Under the pieces are notes generated by a model. The model was not told the DNA's origin. It searched no databases and was given only the letters and a program-made list of their open reading frames with translations. This document shows positions 10,383 to 59,551 of a DNA stretch of 64,000 bases, piece after piece. Position 1 is the first letter of the stretch; every line of letters begins with the position of its first letter. The position numbers were made by a program, and so were the translations under genes. The stretch covers positions 3,038,001-3,102,000 of the forward strand of contig JAWMAR010000217.1 in the NCBI GenBank assembly GCA_036785375.1, given 5' to 3'. Source of the DNA: Leucoraja ocellata (taxonomy: Eukaryota).

Positions 10383-13251
10383 TCATTCCACACAGCCACC
10401 ACTCTCTGAGTAAAGGTTCCCCCTCATGTTACCCCTAAACTTCTGTCCCTTAATTCTCAAGTCATGTCCCCTTGTTTGAATCTTCCCTACTCTCAGTGGG
10501 AAAAGCTTAACCACGCCAACTCTGTCTATCCCTCTCATCATTTTAAAGACCTCTATCAAGTCCCCCCTTAACCTTCTGCGCTCCAAAGAATAAAGCCCCA
10601 ACTTGTTCAACCTTTCTCTGTAACTTAGTTGCTGAAACCCAGGCAACATTCTAGTAAATCTCCTCTGTACTCTCTCTATTTTGATGACATCCTTCCTATA
10701 ATTAGGCGACCAAAATTGTACACCATACTCCAGAATTGGCCTCACCAATGCCTTGTACAATTTTAACATTACATCCCAACTTCTATACCCAATGCTCTGA
10801 TTTATAAAGGCCAGCACACCAAAAGCTTTCTTTACCACCCTATCTACATGAGATTCCACTTTCAGGGAACTGTGCACAGTTATTCCCAGATCCCTCTGTT
10901 CACCTGCATTCTTCAATTCCCTACCATTTACCATGTACGTCCTATTTTGATTTGCCTGCCAAGATGTAGCACCTCACATTTATCAGCATTAAACCCCATC
11001 TGCCATCTTTCAGCCCACTCTTCCAACTGACATAAATCTCTCTGTAGACTTTGAAAATCTACTTCATTATCCACAACCCCACCTATCTTAGTATCATCTG
11101 CATACTTACTAATCCAATTTACCACACCATCATCCAGATCATTGATGTACATGACAAACAACAGTGGACCCAACACAGATCCCTGTGGCACCCCACTAGT
11201 CACTGGCCTCCAACCTGACAAACAACCATCCACCATTACTCTCTGGCATCTCCCATTCAGCCACTGTTGAATCCATCTTGCTACTCCACCATTAATACCC
11301 AACAATTGAACCTTCTTAACCAACCTTCCGCGAGGAACCTTGTCAAAGGCCATATTGAAGTCCATATATACAGCATCCACTGCTTTACCTTCATCAATTT
11401 CCCGAGTAACCTCTTCAAAAAATTCAAGAAGATTAGTCAAACATGACCTTCCAGGCACAAATCCATGTTGACTGTTCCTAATCAGACCCTGTTTATCCAG
11501 ATGCTTATATATATTATCTCTAAGTATCCTTTCCATTAATTTGCCCACCACTGACGTCAAACTAACAGGTCTATAATTGCTAGGTTTACTCTTAGACCCC
11601 TTTTTAAACAATGGAACACCATGTGCAGTACACCAATCCTCCGGCACCATTCCCGTTTCAAATGACATCTGAAATATTTCTGTCATAGCCCCTGCTATTT
11701 CTACACTAACTTCCCTCAATGTCCTAGGGAATATCCTGTCCGGACCTGGAGACTTATCCACTTTTATATTTCTCAAAAGTGTCAGTACTTCCTCTTCTTT
11801 GAATCTCATAGTTTCCATAGCTACTCTACTTGTTTCCCTTACCTCACATTATTCATTATCCTTCTCCTTGGTGAATACCGAAGAAAAGAAATTGTTCAAT
11901 ATCTCCCCCATCTCTTTTGGCTCTGCAGATAGCTGTCCACTCTGACTCTCTAATGGACCAATTTTATCCCTCGTTATCCTTTTGCTATTAATATAGCTGT
12001 AGAAACCCTTTGGATTTACTTTCACCTTACTTGCCAAAGCAACCTCATATCTTCTTTTAGCTTTTCTAATTTCTTTCCTAAGATTCTTTTTACATTCTTT
12101 ATACTCCTCAAGCACCTCATTTACTCCATGCTGCCTATAATTATTGTAGATCTCTCTCTTTTTCCGAACCGTGTCCAATTTCCCTTGAAAACCATGGCTC
12201 TTTCCAATTTTTACTATTTCCTTTAGACCGAACAGGGACATAAAGATTCTGTACTCTTAAAATGTCACCTTTAAATGTCCTCCATTTCTCTTCCATATCT
12301 TTCCCATAAAACAAACTGTCCCAATTTACTCATTTTAAATCCTTTCGCATCTCCTCAAAGTTAGCCTTTCTCCAATCAAAAATCTCAACCCTAGGTCCAG
12401 TTCTGACCCTCTCCATAATTATATTGAAACTAATGGTATTGTGATCACTAGTCCCGAACTGTTCCCCAACGCATACTTCTGCTACCTGACCCGTCTCATT
12501 TCCTAACAGGAGGTCCAGCACCGCACCTTCTCTAGTAGGTACTTCTATGTATTGCTGCAAAAAACTATCCTGCACACATTTTACAAACTCCAAATATCCT
12601 GCACACATTTTACAACTTACAAACCCCATCCAGCCCATTTACAAAATGTGTTTCCCAGTCTATGTGTGGAAAATTGATATCTCCCACAATCACTACCTTG
12701 TGCTTACTACGAATATCTGCAATCTCCTTACATATTTGATCTTCCAATTCTCGCTCCCCATTTGGCGGTCTATAATACACCCCTATAAGTGTTGCTACCC
12801 CTTTACCATTTCTCAGTTCCACCCAAATAGCCTCCCTAGATGAGCCCTCTAATCTATCCTGCCAAAGCACTGCTGTAATATCTTCCCTGATAAGCAATGC
12901 AACACCTCCACCTCTTGCCCCTCCAATTCTATCACACCTGAAGCAACGAAATCCTGGAATATTTAGTTTCCAATCACAGCCCTCCTGCAACCATGTTTCA
13001 CTGATCGCCACAACATCATACTTCCAGGTGTCAATCCAGGCTCCAAGTTCATCCACATTTCTTACAATGCTCCTAGCATTAAAATATACACATTTAAGAA
13101 ACCCACCCTCTCTTATTCTCTGTTTATTGTCTTTTTCTTCTCTCTCCCCTACATTTTGGGTCAGAGTGCTACCATTCTCTACCTCCTGCCTTGCACACTG
13201 ACTGCTAGCTTTCCCAATTTGAGTCCCTCCCCCCAACCATACTAGTTTAAA
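10383..13251 (-). pseudogene. CR1 family B ORF2 (APE endonuclease-RT), frameshifted
   Basis: Split across ORFs 12610-13410, 12330-12638, 11849-12241, 10928-11818 and 10383-10934; a small tandem duplication lies near 12566-12617. Confidence 0.9.
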
Positions 13252-14177
13252 GTCTCCCCAGTAGCCTTTGCAAATCTCCCCGACAGGATATTGGTCCCCC
13301 TCGAGTTCAAGTGCAACCCGTCCTTTCTGTACAGGTCGCACCTTCCCCAAAAGAGGTCCCAATGATCCAGAAACTTGAATCCATACCCACTGCACCAGTC
13401 CCTCATCCACTCATTTATCCTCCACCTCGCTCCATTCCTACTCTCACTGTCGCGTGGCACAGGCAGTAATCCTGAGATTGTTACCTTTGCAGTCCTTCTC
13501 CTTAACTCTCTACCTAACTCCCTAAATTCTTCTTTCAGGACCTCTTCTCTTTTTTTACCTATGTCGTTGGTACCTATATGTACCACATCCTCAGGCTCCT
13601 CTCCCTCCCATTTCAGGATTTCTTGGACACGTTCAGACACATCCCTGACCCTGGCACCAGGGAGGCAAACTACCATCCGGGTCTCCTGTCTGCGTCCACA
13701 GAATCGCCTATCCGACCCCCTGACTATAGAGTCCCCTATTACAATCGCCCTCCTCTTCTTTTCCTTACCCTTCTGAGCAACAGGACCGGTCTTTGTGCCA
13801 GAGGCCTGGCCGCTGTCGCTGCCCCCAGATAGGCTGTCTCCCCCACCCTTACTCAAACATGAGTACTTATTTTCAAGGTGTACAGCCACCGGGGTACTCA
13901 CCAGTCCCTGCCTCTGCCCATTGCCCTTCCTAACTGTGACCCAGTTTTCTGTCTCCCGTGGTCTTGGAGTGACCACCTCCCTGTAACTCCTTTCCATGAC
14001 CTCCTCGCTCTCCCTGAGCAGACAGAGGTCATCGAGTTGCTGTTCCAGGTTCCTGACACGGTCCCTTAAGAGCCCCATCTCGACGCACCTGGCGCAGATG
14101 TGGACGTCTGGAAGGCACTCAGACTCCATGACCTCCCACATCTGATATCCAGAACAGTAAACTGCCCTGGCCCTCAT
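13242..14177 (-). CDS. CR1 ORF1p (zinc-finger/coiled-coil plus SGNH/GDSL esterase), 311 aa, uninterrupted
   Basis: MRARAVYCSGY...CARC, coiled coil, GDSIVR, HIGTND and DGLHLN motifs. Confidence 0.85.
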   Translation of the reverse strand: MRARAVYCSGYQMWEVMESECLPDVHICARCVEMGLLRDRVRNLEQQLDDLCLLRESEEVMERSYREVVTPRPRETENWVTVRKGNGQRQGLVSTPVAVHLENKYSCLSKGGGDSLSGGSDSGQASGTKTGPVAQKGKEKKRRAIVIGDSIVRGSDRRFCGRRQETRMVVCLPGARVRDVSERVQEILKWEGEEPEDVVHIGTNDIGKKREEVLKEEFRELGRELRRRTAKVTISGLLPVPRDSESRNGARWRINEWMRDWCSGYGFKFLDHWDLFWGRCDLYRKDGLHLNSRGTNILSGRFAKATGETLN

Positions 14178-15358: not shown

Positions 15359-18300
15359 GCACAGATTTACTAGAATGTTGCCTGGGTTTCAGCAACTAAG
15401 TTACAGAGAAAGGTTGAATAAGTTAGGGCTTTATTCTTTGGAGCGCAGAAGTTTAAGGGGGGACTTGATAGAGGTTTTTAAAATAGAAACATAGAAACAT
15501 AGAAATTAGGTGCAGGAGTAGGCCATTCGGCCCTTCGAGCCTGCACCGCCATTCAATATGATCATGGCTGATCATCCAACTCAGTATCCCGTACCTGCCT
15601 TTCCTCCATACCCCCTGATCCCCTTAGCCACAAGGGCCACATCTAACTCCCTCTTAAATATAGCCAATGAACTGGCCTCAACTACCCTCTGTGGCAGAGA
15701 GTTCCAGAGATTCACCACTCTCTGTGTGAAAAAAGTTCTTCTCATCTCGGTTTTAAAGGATTTCCCCTTTATCCTTAAGCTGTGACCCCTTGTCCTGGAC
15801 TTCCCTAACATCGGGAACAATCTTCCTGCATCTAGCCTGTCCAACCCCTTAAGAATTTTGTAAGTTTCTATAAGATCCCCTCTCAATCTTCTAAATTCTA
15901 GAGAGTATAAACCAAGTCTATCCAGTCTTTCTTCATAAGACAGTCCTGACATCCCAGGAATCAGTCTGGTGAACCGTCTCTGCACTCCCTCTATGGCAAT
16001 AATGTCCTTCCTCAGATTTGGAGACCAAAACTGTACGCAATACTCCAGGTGTGGTCTCACCAAGACCCTGTACAACTGCAGTAGAACCTCTCTGCTCCTA
16101 TACTCAAATCCTTTTGCAATGAAAGCTAACATACCATTCGCTTTCTTTACTGCCTGCTGCACCTGCATGCCTACCTTCAATGACTGGTTTACCATGACAC
16201 CCAGGTCTCGCTGCATCTCCCCCTTTCCCAATCGGCCACCATTTAGATAATAGTCTGCTTTCCTGTTTTTGCCACCAAAATGGATAACCTCACATTTATC
16301 CACATTATACTGCATCTGCCAAACATTTGCCCACTCACCCAGCCTATCCAAGTCACCCTGCAGTCTCCTAGCATCCTCCTCACAGCTAACACTGCCCCCC
16401 AGCTTAGTGTCATCCGCAAACTTGGAGATATTGCCTTCAATTCCCTCATCCAGATCATTAATATATATTGTAAATAGCTGGGGTCCCAGTACTGAGCCTT
16501 GGGGTACCCCACTAGTCACTGCCTGCCATTGTGAAAAGGACCCGTTTACTCCTACTCTTTGCTTCCTGTTTGCCAGCCAGTTCTCTATCCACATCAATAC
16601 TGAACCCCCAATGCCATGTGCTTTAAGTTTGTATACTAATCTCTTATGTGGGACCTTGTCGAAAGCCTTCTGGAAGTCCAGATACACCACATCCACTGGT
16701 TCTCCCCTATCCACGCTACTAGTTACATCCTCGAAAAATTCTATAAGATTCGTCAGACATGATTTACCTTTCGTAAATCCATGCTGACTTTGTCCAATGA
16801 TTTCACCACTTTCCAAATGTGCTGCTATCCCATCTTTAATAACTGACTCTAGCAGTTTCCCCACTACCGATGTTAGACTAACTGGTCTGTAATTCCCCAT
16901 TTTCTCTCTCCCTCCCTTCTTAAAAAGTGGGGTTACGTTTGCTACCCGCCAATCTTCAGGAACTACTCCAGAATCTAAAGAGTTTTGAAAGATTATTACT
17001 AATGCATCCACTATTTCTGGAGCTACTTCCTTAAGTACTCTGGGATGCAGCCTATCTGGCCCTGGGGATTTATCGGCCTTTAATCCATTCAATTTACCCA
17101 AAACCACTTCCCGGCTAACCTGGATTTCACTCAATTCCTCCAACTCCTTTGACCCGCGGTCCCCTGCTATTTCCGGCAAATTATTTATGTCTTCCTTAGT
17201 GAAGACGGAACCAAAGTAGTTATTCAATCAGTCCGCCATATCCTTGTTCCCCATGATCAACTCACCTGTTTCTGACTGCAAGGGACCTACATTTGTTTTA
17301 ACTAATCTCTTTCTTTTCACATATCTATAAAAACTTTTTATCAGTTTTTATGTTCCCTGCCAGTTTTCTTTCATAATCTATTTTCCCTTTCCTAATTAAG
17401 CCCTTTGTCCTCCTCTGCTGGTCTTTGAATTTCTCCCAGTCCTCCGGTATGCTGCTTTTTCTGGCTAATTTGTACGCATCAACCTTCGCTTTGATACTAT
17501 CCCTGATTTCCCTTGTTATCCATGGATGTACTACCTTCCCTGATTTATTCTTTTGCCAAACTGGGATGAACAATTTTTGTAGTTCATCCATGCAGTCTTT
17601 AAATGTCTTCCATTGCATATCCACCATCAACCCTTTTAGAATTAATTGCCAGTCAATCTTGGCCAATTCACGTCTCATACCCTCAAAGTTACCTTTCTTT
17701 AAGTTCAGAACCATTGTTTCTGAATTAACAATGTCACTCTCCATCCTAATGAAGAACTCAACCATATTATGGTCACTCTTGCCCAAGGGGGCAAGTACAA
17801 CAAGATTGCTAACTAACCCTTCCTCATTACTCAATACCCAGTCTAAAATAGCCTGCTCTCTCGTTGGTTCCTCTACATGTTGATTTAGATAACTATCCCG
17901 CATACATTCCAAGAAATCCTCTTCCTCAGCACCCCTGCCAATTTGATTCACCCAATCTATATGTTGATTGAAGTCACCCATTATAACCGTTTTGCCTTTG
18001 TCACACGCATTTCTAATTTCCTGTTTGATACCATCTCCAACTTCACTACTACTGTTAGGTGGCCTGTACACAACACCCACCAGCGTTTTCTGCCCCTTAG
18101 TGTTTTGCAGCTCTACCCATACCGATTCCACATCCTCCAAACTAATGTCCTTCCTTTCCATTGCATTAATCCCCTCTCTAATCAGTAACGCTACCCCACC
18201 TCCTTTTCCTTTCTGTCTATCCCTCCTGAATATTGAATATCCCTGGATGTTCAGCTCCCAGCCTTGGTCACCCTGGAGCCATGTCTCCGTGATCCCAACT

Positions 18301-19308
18301 ATATCATAGTCATTAATAGCTATCTGCACATTCAACTCATCCACCTTATTACGAATGCTCCTTGCATTGAGACACAAAGCCTTCAGGCTTGTTTTTACAA
18401 CACTCTTACCCCTTATACAATTATGTTGAAAAGTGGCCCTTTTTGATTTTTGCCCTGGTTTTGTCTGCCTGCCACTTTTACTTTTCACCTTGCTACCTAT
18501 TTCTTCTATCCTCATTTTACACCCTTCGGTCTCTACGCTCACACATTTAAGAAATCCTTTCCCTTTAACTCCATCCTCCACTGTCCCATACAACACCCCA
18601 CCCCCCTTATTCAGTTTAAAGCCACCCGTGTAGCAGTGGCAAACCTGCCTGCCAGAATGCTGGTCCCACACCTGTTAAGATGCAATCCGTCCCTTTTGTA
18701 CAGTTCCCCCTTACCCCAAAACAGATCCCAGTGATCTAAGAATCTAAATCCCTGCCCCGTGCACCAGTTCCTCAGCCACACGTTCAGGTCCCGTATCTCC
18801 CTGTTCCTGCTCTCGCCAGCACAGGGAACTGGAAGCAAACCGGAGATAACAACCCTGGAGGTCCTGCTTTTCAACATTTTTCCGAGCTCTCTAAAGTCAC
18901 GCTGCAGAATATTCATCCCCTTCTTTCCGACATTCCAAAATGATGAGAGGGATAGACAGAGTTGACGTGGAAAAGCTTTTCCCACTGAGAGTAGGGAAGT
19001 TTCAAACAAGGGGACATGACTTGAGAATTAAGGGACTGAAGTTTAGGGGTAACATGAGGGGGAACTTCTTTACTCAGAGAGTGTTGGCTGTGTGGAATGA
19101 GCTTCCAGTGAAGGTGGTGGAGGCAGGTTCATTTTTATCATTTAAAAATAAATTGGATAGTTATATGGATGGGAAGGGAATGGAGGGTTATGGTCTGAGC
19201 GCAGGTATTTGGGACTAGGGGAGATTATGTGTTCGGCACGGACTAGAAGGGTCGAGATGGCCTGTTTCCGTGCTGTAATTGTTATATGGTTATATGGTTA
19301 TATGGTTA
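15359..19308 (+). mobile_element. CR1 family B 3' fragment (15359-15484 joined to 18937-19308), host of a nested insertion
   Basis: RFTRMLPGFQQLSYRERLNKLG...EVFK|MMRGIDRV...; (ggttatat)3 tail. Confidence 0.9.
15485..18936 (-). mobile_element. Young 5'-truncated CR1 family A with near-intact ORF2
   Basis: ORF1 SGNH C-terminus 18611-18936, APE ORF 17325-18671, 548-aa RT ORF 15581-17227, (catagaaa)n tail; TSD aaaat at 15480-15484 and 18937-18941. Confidence 0.95.
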
Positions 19309-24193: not shown

Positions 24194-26659
24194 ATGAAAG
24201 AAGTGCTAATGGTTCAAAATAGAATTGTTTGGACATGAAACCACTGCTTCATTCAACCTTACTTTTAAAGACCCTTTTATATGAGGGTTTTTAATTTGTA
24301 TCTGGTTTTCTTGCAGTGATCCTTTTACCAAGGGGCATTGGATATTTTTTTTGTAAGAGTATTTTGGCTATTCATTTATTGATTGTTTTGTTTATTTATT
24401 ATCTATAATCTGTGTGTATTGCATTTACAAGCCTAAAGCAAGTATGAATTTCACTGTTCTGTTGTCGGTATGTTTAGCAATTAAGCACTCTTGCCTTGTT
24501 AAACATGAGTAAGGCACAATCTGTGCTACGCCAGAGCCCAGGTACATAGGAAGGAATGTTACATGATGCACAGGCAACAAAGACATATTCCCACAACTTG
24601 TTGCCTGCTTTAAGCTGATGCAAGGTAGAGTCATCGGGCTTACCAGGCCAGGAAGAGGGAGATTGATGATGATATAACGACAGCTTGTGGCAGCAGCAAT
24701 GCGTGCATATGTGTTTGGGCCCAGATGGCACATCTGTTCATCTTGGCACCATGAGAATAATTTAAAAATATGTTTATGGTCACTTTGTGTGCATCATCTG
24801 TGAAACTGGATGAGAGATTGGGACAGATGTTGATAACTATTTTGTCATGTTTAGTAGAGAGTGGCAGGTGAGAGACAAGAAAGGAAGGGTTTGGAATATC
24901 TGTTTTGAAGGCACATAAGCATCGATTGGTGTTTCCATGGAGATGGAGCTAGTGCATAGCAGATTGGGCAACATTGCACAGGCTGAAATAGCTTGTTTTT
25001 TTGTATTGATTCGAGATCTGTATCGTTAGGTTCATTCCAAATGCTTGGCCAAGAAGGGGAATGAAATCAAAGTTTAAGCTGGGGACTGAAAATGATGATG
25101 CAACTTTTTGATATAAGTTGACAAAGCTGTGACTTCATAGCAGGCATCTAGTCTGACACAATGGAGCTGATAGTGTTGAGGAGGTGAAACAACTGGTTGG
25201 GATCATTGAACATATGGAAGTTGACTGTATTTCTGTTGATAAGGTCCCTTTACCAGAATGCTGTATGTCAGCAAACGCTGTGACCACAACTCTACATGCA
25301 TTGATTTTGATTGATTGGTGAAATTATCTATAAATTCCCACAAACTAACTTCAATATCTTATCTAAAATGGCAGATTTTATAAAGAGCACACAAAAAAAT
25401 CCATAAAAACTAGTTCTGCTGTGTAGCTATCCAAGATCTTTTGACTAAATTTCTAAGTGTAGTTTGTTCTTTGTTAAGTACTAAGAGCTATAATGTAATG
25501 GAAATGCTGTAAAGGAATGGAGCTGCAAATTGCATTGCAGCCATCCTCTTCATTAAGCTGAAATTGTTCATGTTTCAGTGTAGCAGCCACCTTTTGTTTC
25601 AATATGTAGAACATTTTAAGGAACAAAATACAATTGTGGTCCTAATAATGTGCCTCCCTGTTCTCCCCTCACATCAAATTTCATAACGTTTACGGCACTT
25701 AGGTGGGCCATTTAACACAAATGTCCTTGCTAGTGTCAGACAAGCATCCTCCAAAGCCATTTCTATTAACTTACTTCATGTTAAAGCATGAAACAACTTG
25801 GTTACTAGATTTGGCGGCAATTCGAGAACACGGTGCAAGATGCTTCGGGAAACCATTAGCCTAAGTGCAAACTTTTGATGCCAGCTGTTTTTCAATGGAG
25901 GTTGATCATTCCTAAAGTAATTCTGCCTCTAAGGTGATTGGACTACGGCTGAAATGGGGGGCTAGAAATTGATGAAAGGATTAATTATTCCTCATATTGA
26001 GAAGAATGATGAAATGTCTTTGTCTCCATGAGGTTTCATAGTATGCTCATACGTTTCCTCATTTTATAATGTCAATGACCATGCATGATAGTATCATTTA
26101 AACAAACTTCACACAGAGAGTGAATGCTAAACCATTATTCAATGTATTTTCAACCATGTTCAAATATTTTGAATATGGGCCATTAAATGACAGAAGTGAA
26201 AACATTAGATTAACAATGAGTTGCAAAAGCTTTGAGCATGAGAAGAAAAGGAATCTATGGTATTTTTGCATCATGAACTAGGATTAAGAGCATTGATGCT
26301 GTTTTTTTGCTTCTGTATTGAGTGCTTGTATGGAAGGTGGTTTTGTACATGCTGGCCCTTCAATCAGAAACAGTCCTTTGGGCATGTCTTCTATCTCTAC
26401 GTGGTCCACAGGAAAACATTTAAAAAAAAATTAAAGGTCCAATTTCCCTACCTCAACTGTGACCAGAACCCTTGTTGCTGGATTTGACACTGCATGTGGG
26501 CTGAGATGTGGCTTTGGCCATTAAATTAGCCATCTGTGTCTCTGAAAAATGCATCCATCCCATTTCTCAGTTCACAAGGTCTATGCTACATCTGCTGGTA
26601 CAAACACCTATTCCTCTCCACCGGGGCATGCTACCACAGAGGTAAGTTAGGTATTTACT

Positions 26660-27550
26660 TGTTTGCTGATGACACTGTGGTGGTGGGCCTGATCTCAGAC
26701 AATGATGAGAAGGCCTACCGGGAGGAGGTGGCTGATCTAGCACTCTGGTGCCAGGAGAACAGCCTCCTCTTGAACATCAAAAAAACGAAGGAGCTGATCA
26801 TGGACTTTAGGAGGGCACATCATCCGAGGACGTACACTCCATTGAGGATAAATGGGGATCCTGTGGATAGGGTGAACTGTTTTAAATATTTGGGAGTCCA
26901 CATCTCTGAGGATATGACATGGTCATCACACGCCTCAGCACTGGTGAGTAAGGCAAGGCAGCGCCTTTACCACCTCAGGCAATTGAGGAAATTCAGAGTG
27001 TCTCCAAGGATCCTACAGTGCTTCTACCCAGCGGCGGTGGAAAGCATCTTGTCCGGGAACATTACCATCTGGTTCGGGAATTGCTCTGCCAAGGACAAGA
27101 AGGCTCTGCAGAGAGTAGTGCGTTCGGCCGAACGCACTATGGGAACTTCACTCACCCCCCTGCAGGAACTATACAACAGGAGGTGCAACTCCAGAGCAAA
27201 CAAAATCATGAGAGACCTCTTCCACCCCTGCAACGGACTGTTCCAGCCGCTACGGTCAGGCAAACGCCTCCGTTGCCATGCAGTGAGATCGGAGAGGTTG
27301 AGAAGGAGTTTCTTCCCAGAGGCAATTCGGATTGTAAACGCCTTTCTCACCAGGGACTAACTCTACAGAACATTTTTCCTTCTATTATTTATTATGTAAA
27401 AGAATATGTGTGTTATGATTGTGTTTATAATTTGTTTGGTTGTTTTGTTGTTTGTCTTTTGCACAAAAGTCCGCGAGCATTGCCACTTTCATTTCACTGC
27501 ACATCTCGTATGTGTATGTGACAAATAAACTTGACTTGACTTGACTTGAC
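26660..27550 (+). mobile_element. 5'-truncated Rex1/Babar-type LINE (RT C-terminal half, open frame)
   Basis: FADDTVVVGLI...KTKELIMDFR...FKYLGVHI...SFFPEAIR; (acttg)n tail. Confidence 0.9.
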
Positions 27551-35419: not shown

Positions 35420-35698
35420 CTTGTGCACAGCAGTAGAGCTGCTGCCTTACAGCGTGAGAGACGCAGGTATGATCCTGACTACGGATGCTGTCTGTATGGA
35501 GTTCTCCCTGGGGTTTTTCCGGGTGCTTTGGTTTCCTCCCACACTCCAAAGACCTACAGGTTTGTAGGTTAATTGGATTTGGTAACAAATGGTCCAGGGT
35601 GTTATACTGTTAGTGTATGGGTGAATTGCTGATCGCCGTGGGTGATGGGCTGAAGGGCCTGCTTCCAATCTGTATCTCTAAAGTCTTAAGTCTAAATT
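35420..35698 (+). mobile_element. tRNA-derived SINE
   Basis: gcacagcagtagagctgctgccttacagcg...caggtttgtaggttaattgg...ctgtatctctaaag. Confidence 0.75.
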
Positions 35699-36008
35699 CT
35701 AAGCAACCTCCACTCAGGCTGCACTTTGTTGAACCCCTGCCCTCCACACTGCTACACTCTGCTGTGCGAAGAGTCTGGCACAAACGCCTACCCTCCACTG
35801 CAGCTCCCAGCAATGAATTGCCCCCTGGCTTGGTGCGGAGAAGCTGCTTGTGGGGGGAAATATCAGATGGGTCAGATTGAGTGGTGTGTGCAGGTCAGTG
35901 CTATGTATGTTGATAAACCACCTGGATCTGATATGGTCTCTCATATTGCATCATATTTGATGGAAGCTGACTTCTCCCTCTCTCATTATTTAGCTGTAAC
36001 CTATAGCT

Positions 36009-36893
36009 CAGGGGCCTACAAACTTTTCAGCATGAGGGCCACATTATATATTTGGTACATTTTTGCGGGCCANNNNNNNNNNNNNNNNNNNNNNNNNNNN
36101 NNNNNNNNNNNNNNNNNNNNNNNNNNNNNNNNNNNNNNNNNNNNNNNNNNNNNNNNNNNNNNNNNNNNNNNNNNNNNNNNNNNNNNNNNNNNNNNNNNNN
36201 NNNNNNNNNNNNNNNNNNNNNNNNNNNNNNNNNNNNNNNNNNNNNNCACACTCACCCACCCACACACACTCACACACCCACCCAAACACCCACACACAGA
36301 CACCCACACACACACACCCACCCACACACCCACCCACACAGCCCCATACACACACCCACACACACTCACACACCCACACACACACTCACTCACCCACCCA
36401 CANNNNNNNNNNNNNNNNNNNNNNNNNNNNNNNNNNNNNNNNNNNNNNNNNNNNNNNNNNNNNNNNNNNNNNNNNNNNNNNNNNNNNNNNNNNNNNNNNN
36501 NNNNNNNNNNNNNNNNNNNNNNNNNNNNNNNNNNNNNNNNNNNNNNNNNNNNNNNNNNNNNNNNNNNNNNNNNNNNNNNNNNNNNNNNNNNNNNNNNNNN
36601 NNNNNNNNNNNNNNNNNNNNNNNNNNNNNNNNNNNNNNNNNNNNNNCTCACTCACTGGGGCCACTGCCGCCGATCTTCACTGTCTCCCCAGGGCCATCGA
36701 CGGTAACCTGTCAGCAACTGCACACAAACCCTCAACTTGATAGCCTACGGCAAACTGACGTGTAAGTTCCCACGCTACCACAGAACCCGCTAAATAGCCC
36801 GCCGCACAGAAGATGTTAAGAGTTTGCAGCGGGCCGGATAAAATCTCGTGGTGGGCCGGATGTGGCCCGTGGGCCATTGTTTAGAGACCTCTG
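36009..36893. mobile_element. hAT (Charlie-type) non-autonomous element with internal CA-rich repeat and N gaps
   Basis: caggggcctacaaactttt...gagggccaca start; gcgggccgga...tggcccgtgggcc...tttagagacctctg end; TSD degenerate. Confidence 0.75.
36247..36402. repeat. (CA/CCA)-rich simple repeat between gaps 36073-36246 and 36403-36646
   Basis: Directly visible. Confidence 0.95.
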
Positions 36894-43569: not shown

Positions 43570-45727
43570 CTAGACTAAGTGGGACCTGGTGGGTCCCAGC
43601 ATCACATGGGAGGGCTGGTCCCCCAACGCAATATTCCATCTCTCCAGCAATTACAATATTGGTGGCCAGTGGGGGGGGGGGAGCGCTAGTACGGGTGTTG
43701 TGGGCTGAAGGGATTGGTTTCCAGAGGGCTTTGTGGGCCGAATGGATTCTTGGGCTGGCAGCTCAGTCACTCAAGCCTATTGTGCTGGCAGCTCACTCAC
43801 TCACCGCTGGTGGGCTGGCAGTTGACACGGCTCTTCCTTGAAATTCGATTTCAAACAGGGTGCAAGGCCACCAAATTCAGGTGCAGTTTCTTACCACCTC
43901 AAGCAGGTGCAAGGCCAACAAATTCAAGTGCAGTTTCATACCATTTCAAGCAGGGTGCAAGGCCACAAAAGACAGCGAGTCGTGACCTCTCCCTCCTCCA
44001 TCTTGCAGAGACTGAACCATGTCCACACTTCTGGGTTTTATAGTCCCTCCCCCACCCACCAGAAGGGGCATGGCCTTCATGGCATGATTGACAGGAGAGA
44101 GAATCTCGACATTTTTTAAACACTAAAAACTCTTTTATTTGTCATCAATTGGAACATTCCTCGACGCCTGATGAGCGGAGGGGGACTCTAAGTAGTATGG
44201 TCAAAATCACAGCTGTACATGGTAGTGGTTTTTCTAAAATCAATATAAAGCGCAAACAGGAAGTGGTCAAGTTTAGACTTTTAATTATATAGTAGGCAAG
44301 GCAACTTTAATTAGGCAAGGCAACTTTAATTAGGCAAAGCAACTTTAACTAGGCAACACAGCTTTAGCATTTCCAAACCAAAGACAACACAGCTGTAGCA
44401 TTTCCAAACAAAAGGCAACACAGTTTTAGCATTTCCAAACTATATTTTCAAACCGCATTAAGGGCACTGACAGGTCAGTAAAACCACTCACAGTTTAGTA
44501 GACATTTGTTCAGTGTTATTTACAGCTCAGACTGAGAGAAGTGAACCATTCACGCCCCCATCTTGCAGAGACTGACTGAGGCACTCAAAACATCCGGGTT
44601 TGGTCTTCAGGAGAGAGAATCTCAACATTTTTTAAACACTAATAATAGACAATAGACAATAGACAATAGACAATAGACAATAGACAATAGGTGCAGGAGT
44701 AGGCCATTTGGCCCTTCCAGCCAGCACCGCCATTCAATGTGATCATGGCTGATCATCCCCAATCAGTACCCCGTCCGGCCTTCTCCACATATCCCCTGAC
44801 TCCGCTATTTATAAGAGCCCTATCTAGCTCTCTCTTGAAAGCATCCAGAGAACCTGCCTCCACTGCCCTCTGAGGCAGAGAATTTCGCAGCCTCACCACT
44901 CTCCGTTCTAAATGGCTTACTCCGTATTCTTAAACTGTGGCCCCTGGTTCTGGACTCCCCCAACATCGGGAACATGTTTTCTGCCTCTAGTGTCTAAGCC
45001 CTTAACAATCTTATATGTTTCAATGAGATCCCTTCTCATGCTTCTAAACTCCAGAGTGTACAAGCCCAGCTGGTCCATTCTCCCAGCATCTGACAGTCCC
45101 CCCATCCCGGGAATTAACCTTGTAAACCTACGCTGCACTCCCTCAATAGCAAGAATGTCCTTCCTCAAATTAGGGGACCAAAACTGCACACAATACTCCA
45201 GATGTGGTCTCACTAGTGCTCTGTACAACTGCAGAAGGACCTCTTTGACCCTATATTCAATTCCTCTTGTTATAAAGGCCAACATGCCATTCGCTTTCTT
45301 CACTGCCTGCTGTACCTGCATGCTTACTTTCATAGACTGATGTACGAGGACCCCCAGATCCCGTTGTGCTTCTCCTTTTCCCAACTTGACGCCATTTAGA
45401 TAGTAATCTGCCTTCCTGTTTTTGCTACCAAAGTGGATAACCTCACATCTATCCGCATTAAACTTCATCTGCCATGCATCTGCCCACTCCCCCAACCTGT
45501 CCAAGTCACCCTGCATTCTCACAGCATCCTCCTCACAGTTCACACTGTCACCCAGCTTTGTGTCATCTGCATCTTTTATCGATGGGAAAAATCCTCTTGT
45601 CCTGCGTAGCGGAGGGGGACTCTGAGTATGATGGTCAAAAATCACAGCCGTAAGTGGCAGCGTTTTTTCTAAAATCAATATACAGAGCAGCAGGAAGTGG
45701 CCAAGATCAGCCTTTTAGTAATATAGA
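43570..45727 (-). mobile_element. Non-autonomous Helitron
   Basis: Minus strand starts A|TCtatattactaaaa and ends with hairpin tgggacc-cacca-ggtccca then cttagtCTAG|T; no TSD; internal minisatellites. Confidence 0.85.
44645..45571 (-). mobile_element. CR1 family C 3' fragment inserted in the Helitron
   Basis: (aatagac)6 tail; ADDTKLG...RPHLEYCVQFWSP. Confidence 0.9.
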
Positions 45728-56930: not shown

Positions 56931-57707
56931 CTGCCCCACATGCTGCTTCCTGCCTGTCAGGAAGTTGGTGATCCACTGACAGAAGGGTTCAGGCACAGTC
57001 AACTGGGGGAGCTTGGAGTGTAGTAGCTCTGGCATAATGGTGTTGAATGCAGAGCTAAAATCCACAAACAAAATCCTGGCATAGGTCCCCTGGCGGTCTA
57101 GGTGCTGGAGGACGAAGTGCAGGCCTAGGTTGACTTAGGTCCACCAATCGATCGTATGCAAACTGCAGAGGGTCCAGCAGGGGGTTTGTGATATTTTTCA
57201 GCTGGGCCAGCACAAGTCTTTCAAGGGTTTTCATAACAACAGAGGTCAATGCGACAGGCCTGTAGTCATTAAGACCAGTAATTCTTGTCTTTTTGGGTAC
57301 AGGGACAATAGTGGAGACTTTGACGCAGGCAGGGACAGTACAGGTTTGCAGGGACAGGTTGAAAATATCTGTGTAGACTGGTGCCACTTGTTTGGCACAG
57401 AGCTTGAGGGTAGAGGGGGAAACATTGGCCAGTCCTGGCGATTTCTGGCTTTTCTGACTTCTGAACAGCCTCTTCACTTCCTCAATTTCTATTGTTAGTG
57501 ATGGAGAAGTGGCCAGACTAATGTTGGGCAGCAAGGAGGGGGTGGGTAGTGGACGAAGGCCCAGTCTTTGCAGACGTGTGTCAGGCTGTGAGTGGGTGTT
57601 GTGGTGATTGGAGAGGGGTGGATGGGAAAGGGCCCAGTCTTTGCACACTGGAGTCAGGCTGTAAGTAGGTGTGGTGGGTGGGGAATGGTCCAGTCTTTGC
57701 AGACTGG

Positions 57708-58240
57708 TACACAAAAATGCTGGAGAAACTCAGCGGGTGCAGCAGCCAGTGACGTAGGGTGGGTTTTGAGCGCCCGGGGCAGTTTAAAGTTTTGCGCCTC
57801 CTCATTAGCGGGGGGGGAGGGGGGGGGCGGGGGCAGAGGCGGGGGCAGAGGCAGAGGCGGGGGCGGGGGCGGGCGAGGCCGGGGCGGGGGCGGGGCCGGG
57901 CGGGGGCGGGGGGGGCAGAGGTGGGGGCGGGGGGGGGGGGCAGAGGCAGCGGCGGCTGGGACAGCGGCAGCGGCGACCAGAACTCGGAGCTGGGGCGGCG
58001 GCAGCGGCGGCCTGCCCGCGCTGTTTTTATACTCACAGCTCCTCGCTCCAACGGCTCCCCGGGCCTCTTAATTTTATTTAAAAAATTTATTCAACAATTT
58101 TTTTGCGCCCCTCAAAATTTAGCGCCCGGGGCAACCGCCCCACTGCCCCCCCCCCCCCCCCCCACGCTACGCTACTGGCAGCAGCATCTATGGAGCGAAG
58201 GAAATAGGCAACGTTTCAGGCCGAAACCCTTCTTCAGACC
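57708..58240 (-). mobile_element. Penelope-derived hammerhead repeat inserted in the LINE
   Basis: Flanked by 13-bp ctttgcagactgg duplication; minus strand gtCTGAAGAagggtttcggccTGAAAcgttgc. Confidence 0.85.
57747..58177. mobile_element. GC-rich non-autonomous hAT element
   Basis: TIR cagtgacgtagggtggg / cccacgctacgctactg; perfect 8-bp TSD gcagcagc. Confidence 0.9.
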
Positions 58241-59551
58241 CTTTGCAGACTGGAATCAGGCTGTGAGTAGGTGTGAAGTGGTAATTGGAGAGGGAGGGAG
58301 GGAGGGGGTGCCAGGGTTAAGTTTCTGTTTATCAAACCTGCAGTAGAGCACGTTCAGGTCATTGGTCAGCTGACGATTGTCCAAGGAGCGGAGGGGGGTG
58401 GGGTTTCCTCTTGTAACAGGTGATTTCTTGCAAGGCCTTCCAAACTGAAGAAGAGTCACTAGCTGAGAACTTGCTCCTTAACTTCTCAGAGTACCTTTCC
58501 TCGGCAGCTCTGATTCCTCTTCTCAGCTTGTACTTGGCCTGCCTGTAGAGGTGTGCATCCCCACTTCTATAGACCTCCTATTTAGACTGGCGGAACTGTC
58601 TTGAGTCCTGCTGTACACCAGGTCTTGTTGTTGTTGAACCAGATCCGGGTCCTGGTTGGAATGCAACTGTCCTCACAAAAGCTGACATATGATGATACAG
58701 TGTCCGTATATTCATCGAGGCTTGCGGTTGCTTCCCTGAACACATTCCAATCAGTGCAATCAAAGCAGGATTGTAGGTTTTCAATGCCCTCGCTTGTCCA
58801 CCTTTTCATTGTGCTGACCACAGGCTTAGCAGATTTTAGGTAAGAATAAGGTGAACTAAACAATGATCAGGGAGACCCAGAGCCACCCGGGGAACAGAGC
58901 GATATGCGTTCTTGATTGTTGTCCAACAGCGATTGAGTGTTCTCTCCCATCTGGTGGGGCATGTAACATGAAGTCTGTACTTTGGAAGCTCTCGGCTGAG
59001 GTTAGCCTTGTTAAAGTCCCCCAAAACAAAGACCATGGAGTCCTGGAAGTCACTCTCTACCCTCATTACCTGGTCAGCGAGTTGCGATTGCGCCTCACAT
59101 ATACGCAGGCTTGGGGGGAATGTAAACTCCAGCGAGAAAATAAGAGGTAAATTCCCACGGAGAATAAAAGGGTTTGCAGTTTATAAAGAAAGATTCTAGA
59201 TTGAGAGAAGAGAAGTTTGACATTACCGTGATGTCGCTGCACCAGTCCTGGTTAGTATAGAATAATATTCCACAGCCTCTTGATTTTCATGCTGCCTCTG
59301 CTTCGCGGTCCGTTCTATGTAGTTGAAAGTCAGTCAGTTGCAGCGCATTGTCCGGGATCGACCCATACAGCCAGGTCTCGGTGAAGCACAGGGCAGCGGC
59401 TCAAGAGAAGTCCTTGTTTGTCTGGCGTAGGAGTTGCAGTTCGTCCACTTTGTTGTTGCGAGAACGTAGATTTGCAAGGAATATACTCGGGAGTGGAAGG
59501 GCTGACCTCAGTAGCAGTGCCAAATGGAAGTGCCATGCACAAGTACAGGAC

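Follow-up and report, generated by a model that had tools for sequence, protein, structure and literature searches.

Introduction

CR1 elements with an esterase in their first open reading frame (ORF), such as chicken CR1 and ZfL2-1, are long interspersed nuclear elements (LINEs) with two ORFs, ORF1 encoding an SGNH protein and ORF2 an endonuclease and a reverse transcriptase (RT) (PMC3905857). CR1 is the dominant LINE of birds (PMC11835228). The accessible parts of the CR1 literature describe these ORFs and give no mechanism for the translation of ORF2 (PMC11835228, PMC4255032, PMC3905857), and in two-ORF LINEs the translation of ORF2 has been described as unclear (PMC3708506). In this work, we analysed a stretch of 64,000 nucleotides (nt) of the Leucoraja ocellata genome (GCA_036785375.1, contig JAWMAR010000217.1, positions 3,038,001 to 3,102,000 of the forward strand), hereafter the window, which carries two LINE copies with the same two ORFs, one of family A and one of family B. 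Both have at their ORF1-ORF2 junction a conserved heptamer that looks like a site of programmed -1 frameshifting.

The closest parallels are retroviral and other long terminal repeat (LTR) gag-pol genes and the coronavirus infectious bronchitis virus, whose heptamer is also U_UUA_AAC: there too, a heptamer in the -1 phase ends a structural ORF and the enzyme follows in the -1 frame (PMC5009743). Unlike gag-pol elements, the one described here is a non-LTR element, and it has a G-rich tract instead of a predicted pairing structure; as no protease was seen in it, the element would presumably have no enzyme of its own to cleave a fusion protein. Among LINEs, TRE5-A and TRE3-A of Dictyostelium are stated in the accessible part of a review to need a -1 frameshift for ORF2 (PMC5911963). 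They belong to another clade, L1, and have another ORF1, and that part of the review names neither a heptamer nor an assay. As for Paramecium LINE groups 1-3, +1 frameshifting, reinitiation or readthrough has been suggested for ORF2 (PMC5405496), that is, a different direction or mechanism, in a ciliate-specific clade and from consensus sequences only. Lastly, synthetic G-quadruplexes promote frameshifting on the same UUUAAAC (PMC3919603), with four clean G3 runs in the reporters versus usually three in the junctions described here; according to a 2016 review, a natural use of such stimulation was not known (PMC5009743). We found no report of frameshifting in CR1 in the literature searched, which was mostly non-subscription, and CR1 papers of the 1990s may mention the overlap.

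Results

The family A element lies on the minus strand of the window, from about 18933 to 15478, and is truncated at its 5' end. What remains of ORF1 (18611..18933) is the 3' part of an SGNH/GDSL esterase, with a Lipase_GDSL_2 match (E=2e-6) below the curated cut-off, and it ends in DGLHLN...ATRVALN followed by the stop; a full-length ORF1 is present in a sister copy, L008. The junction (18622-18611) reads GCT TTA AAC TGA, as the initial annotation had it, with the heptamer U_UUA_AAC (18614..18620) in the -1 phase and the ORF1 stop UGA (18611..18613) immediately 3' of it. Read in the -1 frame from TTT AAA CTG, the sequence encodes FKLNKGGGV... and is open as far as the endonuclease, through a linker of 82 codons that extends to the motif CLNARSI (18375..18620). 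The G-tract G6-U-G4-N8-G3, in which N8 is tgttgtat, begins 7 nt after the heptamer (18585..18606), also as annotated, and is a candidate stimulator. The AUG of tgtATGgga (18589-18587) is in the ORF1 frame and, as claimed, out of that of ORF2; its spelling proved unique to this copy, the other 29 of 30 family A loci having tgAATGgga or a variant, likewise out of the ORF2 frame.

In the family B copy, likewise on the minus strand, ORF1 (13242..14177; Lipase_GDSL_2, E=4e-14) ends in ATGETLN and a stop. Its U_UUA_AAC (13251-13245) has the same phase and is directly followed by UAG (13242..13251 for heptamer and stop together), and the start of ORF2, in the -1 frame (12610..13251), has no Met as far as the end of the first endonuclease block. 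A G-tract, G6-A-G3-N9-G3, comes 10 nt after the heptamer (13213..13234; G4Hunter 1.68). The initial annotation was thus correct that heptamer, phase and adjacent stop are retained in a second family. Its G pattern is found in both window copies, with a spacer of 7 nt in A and 10 nt in B, and is lost in two subfamilies of the genome, B2 and G.

Over the 240 nt immediately upstream of the junction, no more than 160 are identical between families A and B. The linker downstream had been called unalignable between them, which applies to most of its length, the remainder scoring no better than shuffles (141 of 500 reach its score), and not to the first ~37 nt 3' of the heptamer (27 of 36 nt identical). 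A stretch encoding FLKCV is located within the linker in family A (18556-18541, minus strand) and directly before the endonuclease in B (~13100-13087, minus strand), and locus L103 changes from B to A sequence at this stretch. These observations suggest recombination between subfamilies.

The same layout recurs throughout the 3.44 gigabases of the genome that were searched. The DGLHLN anchor, 53 nt, TTTAAAC and TRR in succession gave 8,501 matches and the reversed pattern none, and the layout is therefore far beyond chance. The anchor pattern itself occurs at 11,137 places (209 for its reversed control), an inexact denominator as it also requires a non-C base further along. In 30 unselected anchor loci, TTTAAAC stands at 53 nt in 24 and at 51 nt in one, and five have none. 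Genome-wide, Leu-Asn-stop is preceded by a base other than T in 95 copies, and the terminal Leu codon has a third base other than A in 77, none of which use a CTN codon. By eye, the same families account for nearly all these variants, as scattered point mutants that are in part locally duplicated.

We grouped 181 loci into subfamilies by the sequence upstream of the junction, in a set from which the deletion-selected L061-L090 and L124-L137 were omitted and in which 20 loci had been selected for their broken heptamer. The terminal Leu codon is TTA in all seven subfamilies examined (A, A3, B1, B2, C, D and G). The Leu of DGLHLN, 18 codons earlier, served as an internal control and is CTT, TTG, CTG or CTA depending on the family. 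The codon ahead of TTA varies as well (GCT, GTT, ACT, GGT, TCT), and its last base is always T. As a background, TTA represents 11 of 101 Leu codons in the ORF1s of five copies, and 25% of four-fold codons in ORF1 end in T.

From the heptamer to the endonuclease, the -1 frame is open in seven of seven subfamilies despite differing linker lengths, the modal offsets of 159, 165, 192 and 246 nt all being multiples of 3. The linkers of A3, G, D and B2 were read from column majorities (13, 26, 15 and 13 copies, respectively); single old copies are often broken, with an offset that is a multiple of 3 in one of four measurable copies of D and four of nine of G. No Met is present ahead of the endonuclease in B1 (18 of 19 copies) or B2 (column majority). 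On the 5' side of the heptamer, the -1 frame has an AUG in none of seven representatives and extends over only five codons in C, D and G. After shuffling, the linker is open by chance with a probability of 0.01-0.04 in B1, B2 and D.

A different heptamer is used in a distant group of esterase LINEs. At the protein level, 59 of 85 short-tailed ORF1 homologues terminate in Leu-Asn, a count that includes the query and one truncated record; among them are named proteins of Latimeria, Paramormyrops, Pelodiscus and Hyla, as well as shark and ray proteins, and those of Pelusios, Natator and Varanus likewise end in Leu-Asn. Lys-Asn is found at the same position in 13 unnamed proteins, which form a separate clade (FastTree support 0.97). 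Three of the 82 DNA loci examined in a metagenome scan encode Lys-Asn, and all three have A_AAA_AAC in phase, the endonuclease in the -1 frame and no Met before it; their ORF1 stop is 30-33 nt 3' of the heptamer, and no G-tract was found at these loci. U_UUA_AAC and A_AAA_AAC are both among the most shifty heptamers for mammalian ribosomes (PMC5009743), and this switch is, in our view, the best argument that conservation acts on the X_XXY_YYZ form. Selection for a -1 recoding signal in the RNA, as the initial annotation proposed, is well supported, since synonymous heptamer positions are fixed across subfamilies, a distant clade has a different canonical heptamer and several subfamilies lack an AUG before the endonuclease.

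The rest of the family A copy consists of an ORF2 endonuclease (APE) block (17325..18374, minus strand), whose frame is broken near 17340 in this copy, an RT block (15581..17227, minus strand; RVT_1, E=2e-33) and a 3' tail (15478..15545, minus strand) that terminates in TTTCTATG repeats. By Pfam, the domains are Exo_endo_phos and RVT_1 in ORF2 and Lipase_GDSL_2 in ORF1. Relatives of the RT are found in bird, turtle and coelacanth, mostly with 45-56% identity, none of the best matches being named CR1, and the nearest named relative of ORF1 belongs to Leucoraja erinacea (97%). The CR1 clade is characterised by 5' truncation and a short tandem repeat at the 3' end. The family A copy fits both traits, with its 5' end inside ORF1 near 18933 and its 3' end in the repeats. 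We assign the element to CR1 from its domains and closest relatives, rather than from a tree of reference clades. At the N-terminus of ORF1 (L008, 836-950), a CxxC...CxxC motif is nearly invariant in homologues, and a coiled coil likely comes next. Other open frames of 170-336 codons were listed in the window at 26530-27521, 35696-36765, 44912-45714 and 57055-58346.

Discussion

We propose, with a probability of roughly 0.8, that the junction is a programmed -1 frameshift site of CR1 LINEs that yields an ORF1-ORF2 fusion; the sequence shows the layout, how well it is conserved and that the subfamilies share no AUG, and from these we infer the slip and the fusion protein. Most ribosomes would stop at the ORF1 terminus and release the esterase protein. 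A minority would slip one base back, with tRNA-Leu on UUA and tRNA-Asn on AAC, and traverse the variable linker of 50-80 codons into the endonuclease and RT. The product would be a fusion made in a low, fixed ratio as in gag-pol systems. Stimulation by the downstream G-run is the least certain step.

In Hypanus sabinus, two annotated proteins (P0195 and P0042) lead in a single frame from esterase to endonuclease by way of ...GFKL..., and probably stem from copies in which one base has been gained or lost shortly before the heptamer. They show the same entry into the -1 frame in another ray. Our search for longer proteins gave 14 matches, mostly chimeric gene models, and no intact esterase-endonuclease-RT fusion among them.

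Several points speak against a frameshift. The case is built on sequence, and for vertebrates beyond this genome on protein sequence only. The many copies of one family do not count as independent observations, which brings the effective sample down to about four deep lineages in this genome plus the Lys-Asn clade. In A, A3, C and G, the part of the linker before the Met would be open by chance with a probability of 0.08-0.22, which is weak evidence for each family (the G representative in this test carries a stop), and these same subfamilies have an in-frame AUG that is a possible reinitiation site. L1 makes its ORF2 protein without needing the ORF2 AUG and without fusion (PMC5009743), and hence a missing AUG alone is no proof of frameshifting. 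Finally, the 94 nt 3' of the heptamer fold no better than shuffles in seven of seven sequences (z -1.6 to +1.2), in a computation that excluded pseudoknots and long-range pairing.

The only conserved 3' feature in the families of this genome is a run of G4-G7 whose start, in each of the seven subfamilies, is 7-10 nt from the heptamer, and this run probably helps the shift. Whether it would do so specifically as an intramolecular RNA G-quadruplex, as the initial annotation had suggested, is doubtful in our view; it might instead bind a protein or encode a glycine linker. The tract is the highest G4Hunter window in both window elements (2.04 in A), and majority or median scores are 1.96 in A3, 2.2 in C, 1.84 in D, 1.48 in G and 1.12 in B2. 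In A, C and D it is spaced 7-8 nt from the heptamer, within the optimum of 6-8 nt measured for a synthetic G-quadruplex behind UUUAAAC, which gave ~7% shifting (PMC3919603), and folding found no base-paired alternative. However, a span of 50 nt contains four separate G3 runs in only two of 24 representatives (C and D) and in none of A, B1, B2 and G, and a four-run quadruplex is thus not conserved across families in this set. A and B1 have three separate G3 runs only, too few for a standard three-tier quadruplex to be predicted there; a two-tier or intermolecular one is possible. The layout G6-N-G3/4-N8/9-G3 is kept in A, A3, B1 and roughly D. In B2 (G4-C-G-A-G3) and G the third run is missing, and B2-type letters predominate in RNA of a related species (1,721 of 2,567 and 1,958 of 2,341 reads). 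The A_AAA_AAC clade does without the tract altogether, and the tract doubles as Gly-Gly codons in the ORF2 frame. Of the initial interpretation, the recoding signal is well supported and the G-quadruplex layout only partly retained.

Alternatively, ORF2 might be translated separately, by termination-reinitiation or scanning, as is known from L1 and SART1: at the downstream AUG where there is one and at a non-AUG codon otherwise. In that case, the bases conserved at the junction would be a context for termination or reinitiation. We regard this as unlikely, even if precedents are at hand in the overlapping stop and start codons of SART1 (PMC3708506) and the AUG-independent initiation of L1 (PMC5009743), and the stop is fixed directly 3' of the heptamer in the vertebrate group. 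The downstream in-frame Met, which the initial annotation raised as a caveat, is the first ORF2-frame AUG of family A (KMRIEE, codon 36; 18513..18515, minus strand). It is fixed there, in 35 of 35 full-length linkers, and family C has a Met at codon 39 in six of six. Nevertheless, its position is not shared: according to column majorities, the first Met is at codon 26 in A3, at codon 24 in G and inside the endonuclease motif in D, and B1 and B2 have none. At the ORF1 stop itself, no ORF2-frame AUG was found in seven of seven representatives. The A_AAA_AAC loci, with their distant stop, tie the motif to the -1 frame rather than to the stop, and reinitiation would leave the use of two different X_XXY_YYZ heptamers unexplained.

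It would be less probable still that Leu-Asn is kept for the esterase fold and that the codons and the -1 overlap are common by descent only. In most vertebrate homologues, Leu-Asn closes the last helix at a fixed distance of 26 residues from DGLH, as one would expect of a structural constraint. The codon counts largely refute this idea, however, as synonymous positions are fixed at the junction while the Leu-Asn of DGLHLN varies freely and A and B have diverged upstream to the extent given above. Moreover, Leu-Asn is kept in proteins with a tail of 31-32 residues and is replaced by Lys-Asn, with A_AAA_AAC, elsewhere. Unnamed esterase ORF1 clusters, of 169 and 223 members, supply such long-tailed proteins (P0092, P0095, P0097 and P0101), which end in Leu-Asn or Phe-Asn at 31-32 residues; an SH3-like insert is present in P0092.

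As for events in RNA, a search across sequencing runs listed no holder recorded as RNA; two raw single-cell RNA runs from a related species cover junction A at depths of 843 and 928 (strand of the element) and junction B at about 2,800, the reads probably coming mostly from decayed copies. No insertions or deletions appear at either junction among the variant rows listed for the two runs, and the only RNA joint that spans a heptamer has 4 reads. These reads are silent on translation and argue against splicing or polymerase slippage. Joining of the frames in RNA, by splicing or by slippage on the U/A or G runs, is accordingly very improbable, even if the G-tract is unstable in length among genomic copies (for instance L111, L140, L304, L306 and L324, with long poly-G expansions in some), the more so as slippage in a tract 3' of the stop could not extend ORF1.

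Other clades of esterase LINEs may recode in other ways. We picked 27 metagenome loci with an ORF1 ending in UGA from the 82 (contigs L163, L167, L168 and L175-L238). The next codon is CUA in 17 of them and CCA in five, and the endonuclease is in frame in 15, out of frame in six and without a match in six. These UGA-CUA/CCA junctions look like candidates for stop-codon readthrough. It is tempting to speculate that esterase LINEs across animals make their RT as a recoded ORF1-ORF2 fusion, through U_UUA_AAC in the CR1 of jawed vertebrates, A_AAA_AAC in the Lys-Asn clade and UGA-CUA readthrough elsewhere, with a quadruplex formed by the G-tract driving the vertebrate shift, which would then be a natural case of such stimulation; taken as a whole, this generalisation is more likely to fail than to hold. 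As the esterase tree leaves its deep branches unresolved, we do not order these mechanisms in time.

We also looked for vertebrate CR1 DNA outside this species. The vertebrate Leu-Asn ending was found in none of 80 loci of the metagenome scan. Among viral contigs, two scans gave no relative and a third gave two weak loci without an endonuclease match; plasmids gave no match, and contigs of prokaryote genomes 52 weak ones, all in prokaryote records. Two proteins on short contigs, labelled Pseudomonas aeruginosa (P0022) and Klebsiella pneumoniae (P0305), share 54% and 62% identity with these LINE proteins, respectively, and are probably host contamination.

With thousands of CR1 copies in this genome and a defined heptamer at their junction, the question can be put to the test with one synonymous mutation. 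The junction is also a natural candidate for the G-rich stimulation of frameshifting. If our proposal is correct, the CR1 ORF2 protein would start with the ORF1 esterase and not at the annotated Met, which would alter both the annotation of these elements and the design of retrotransposition assays.
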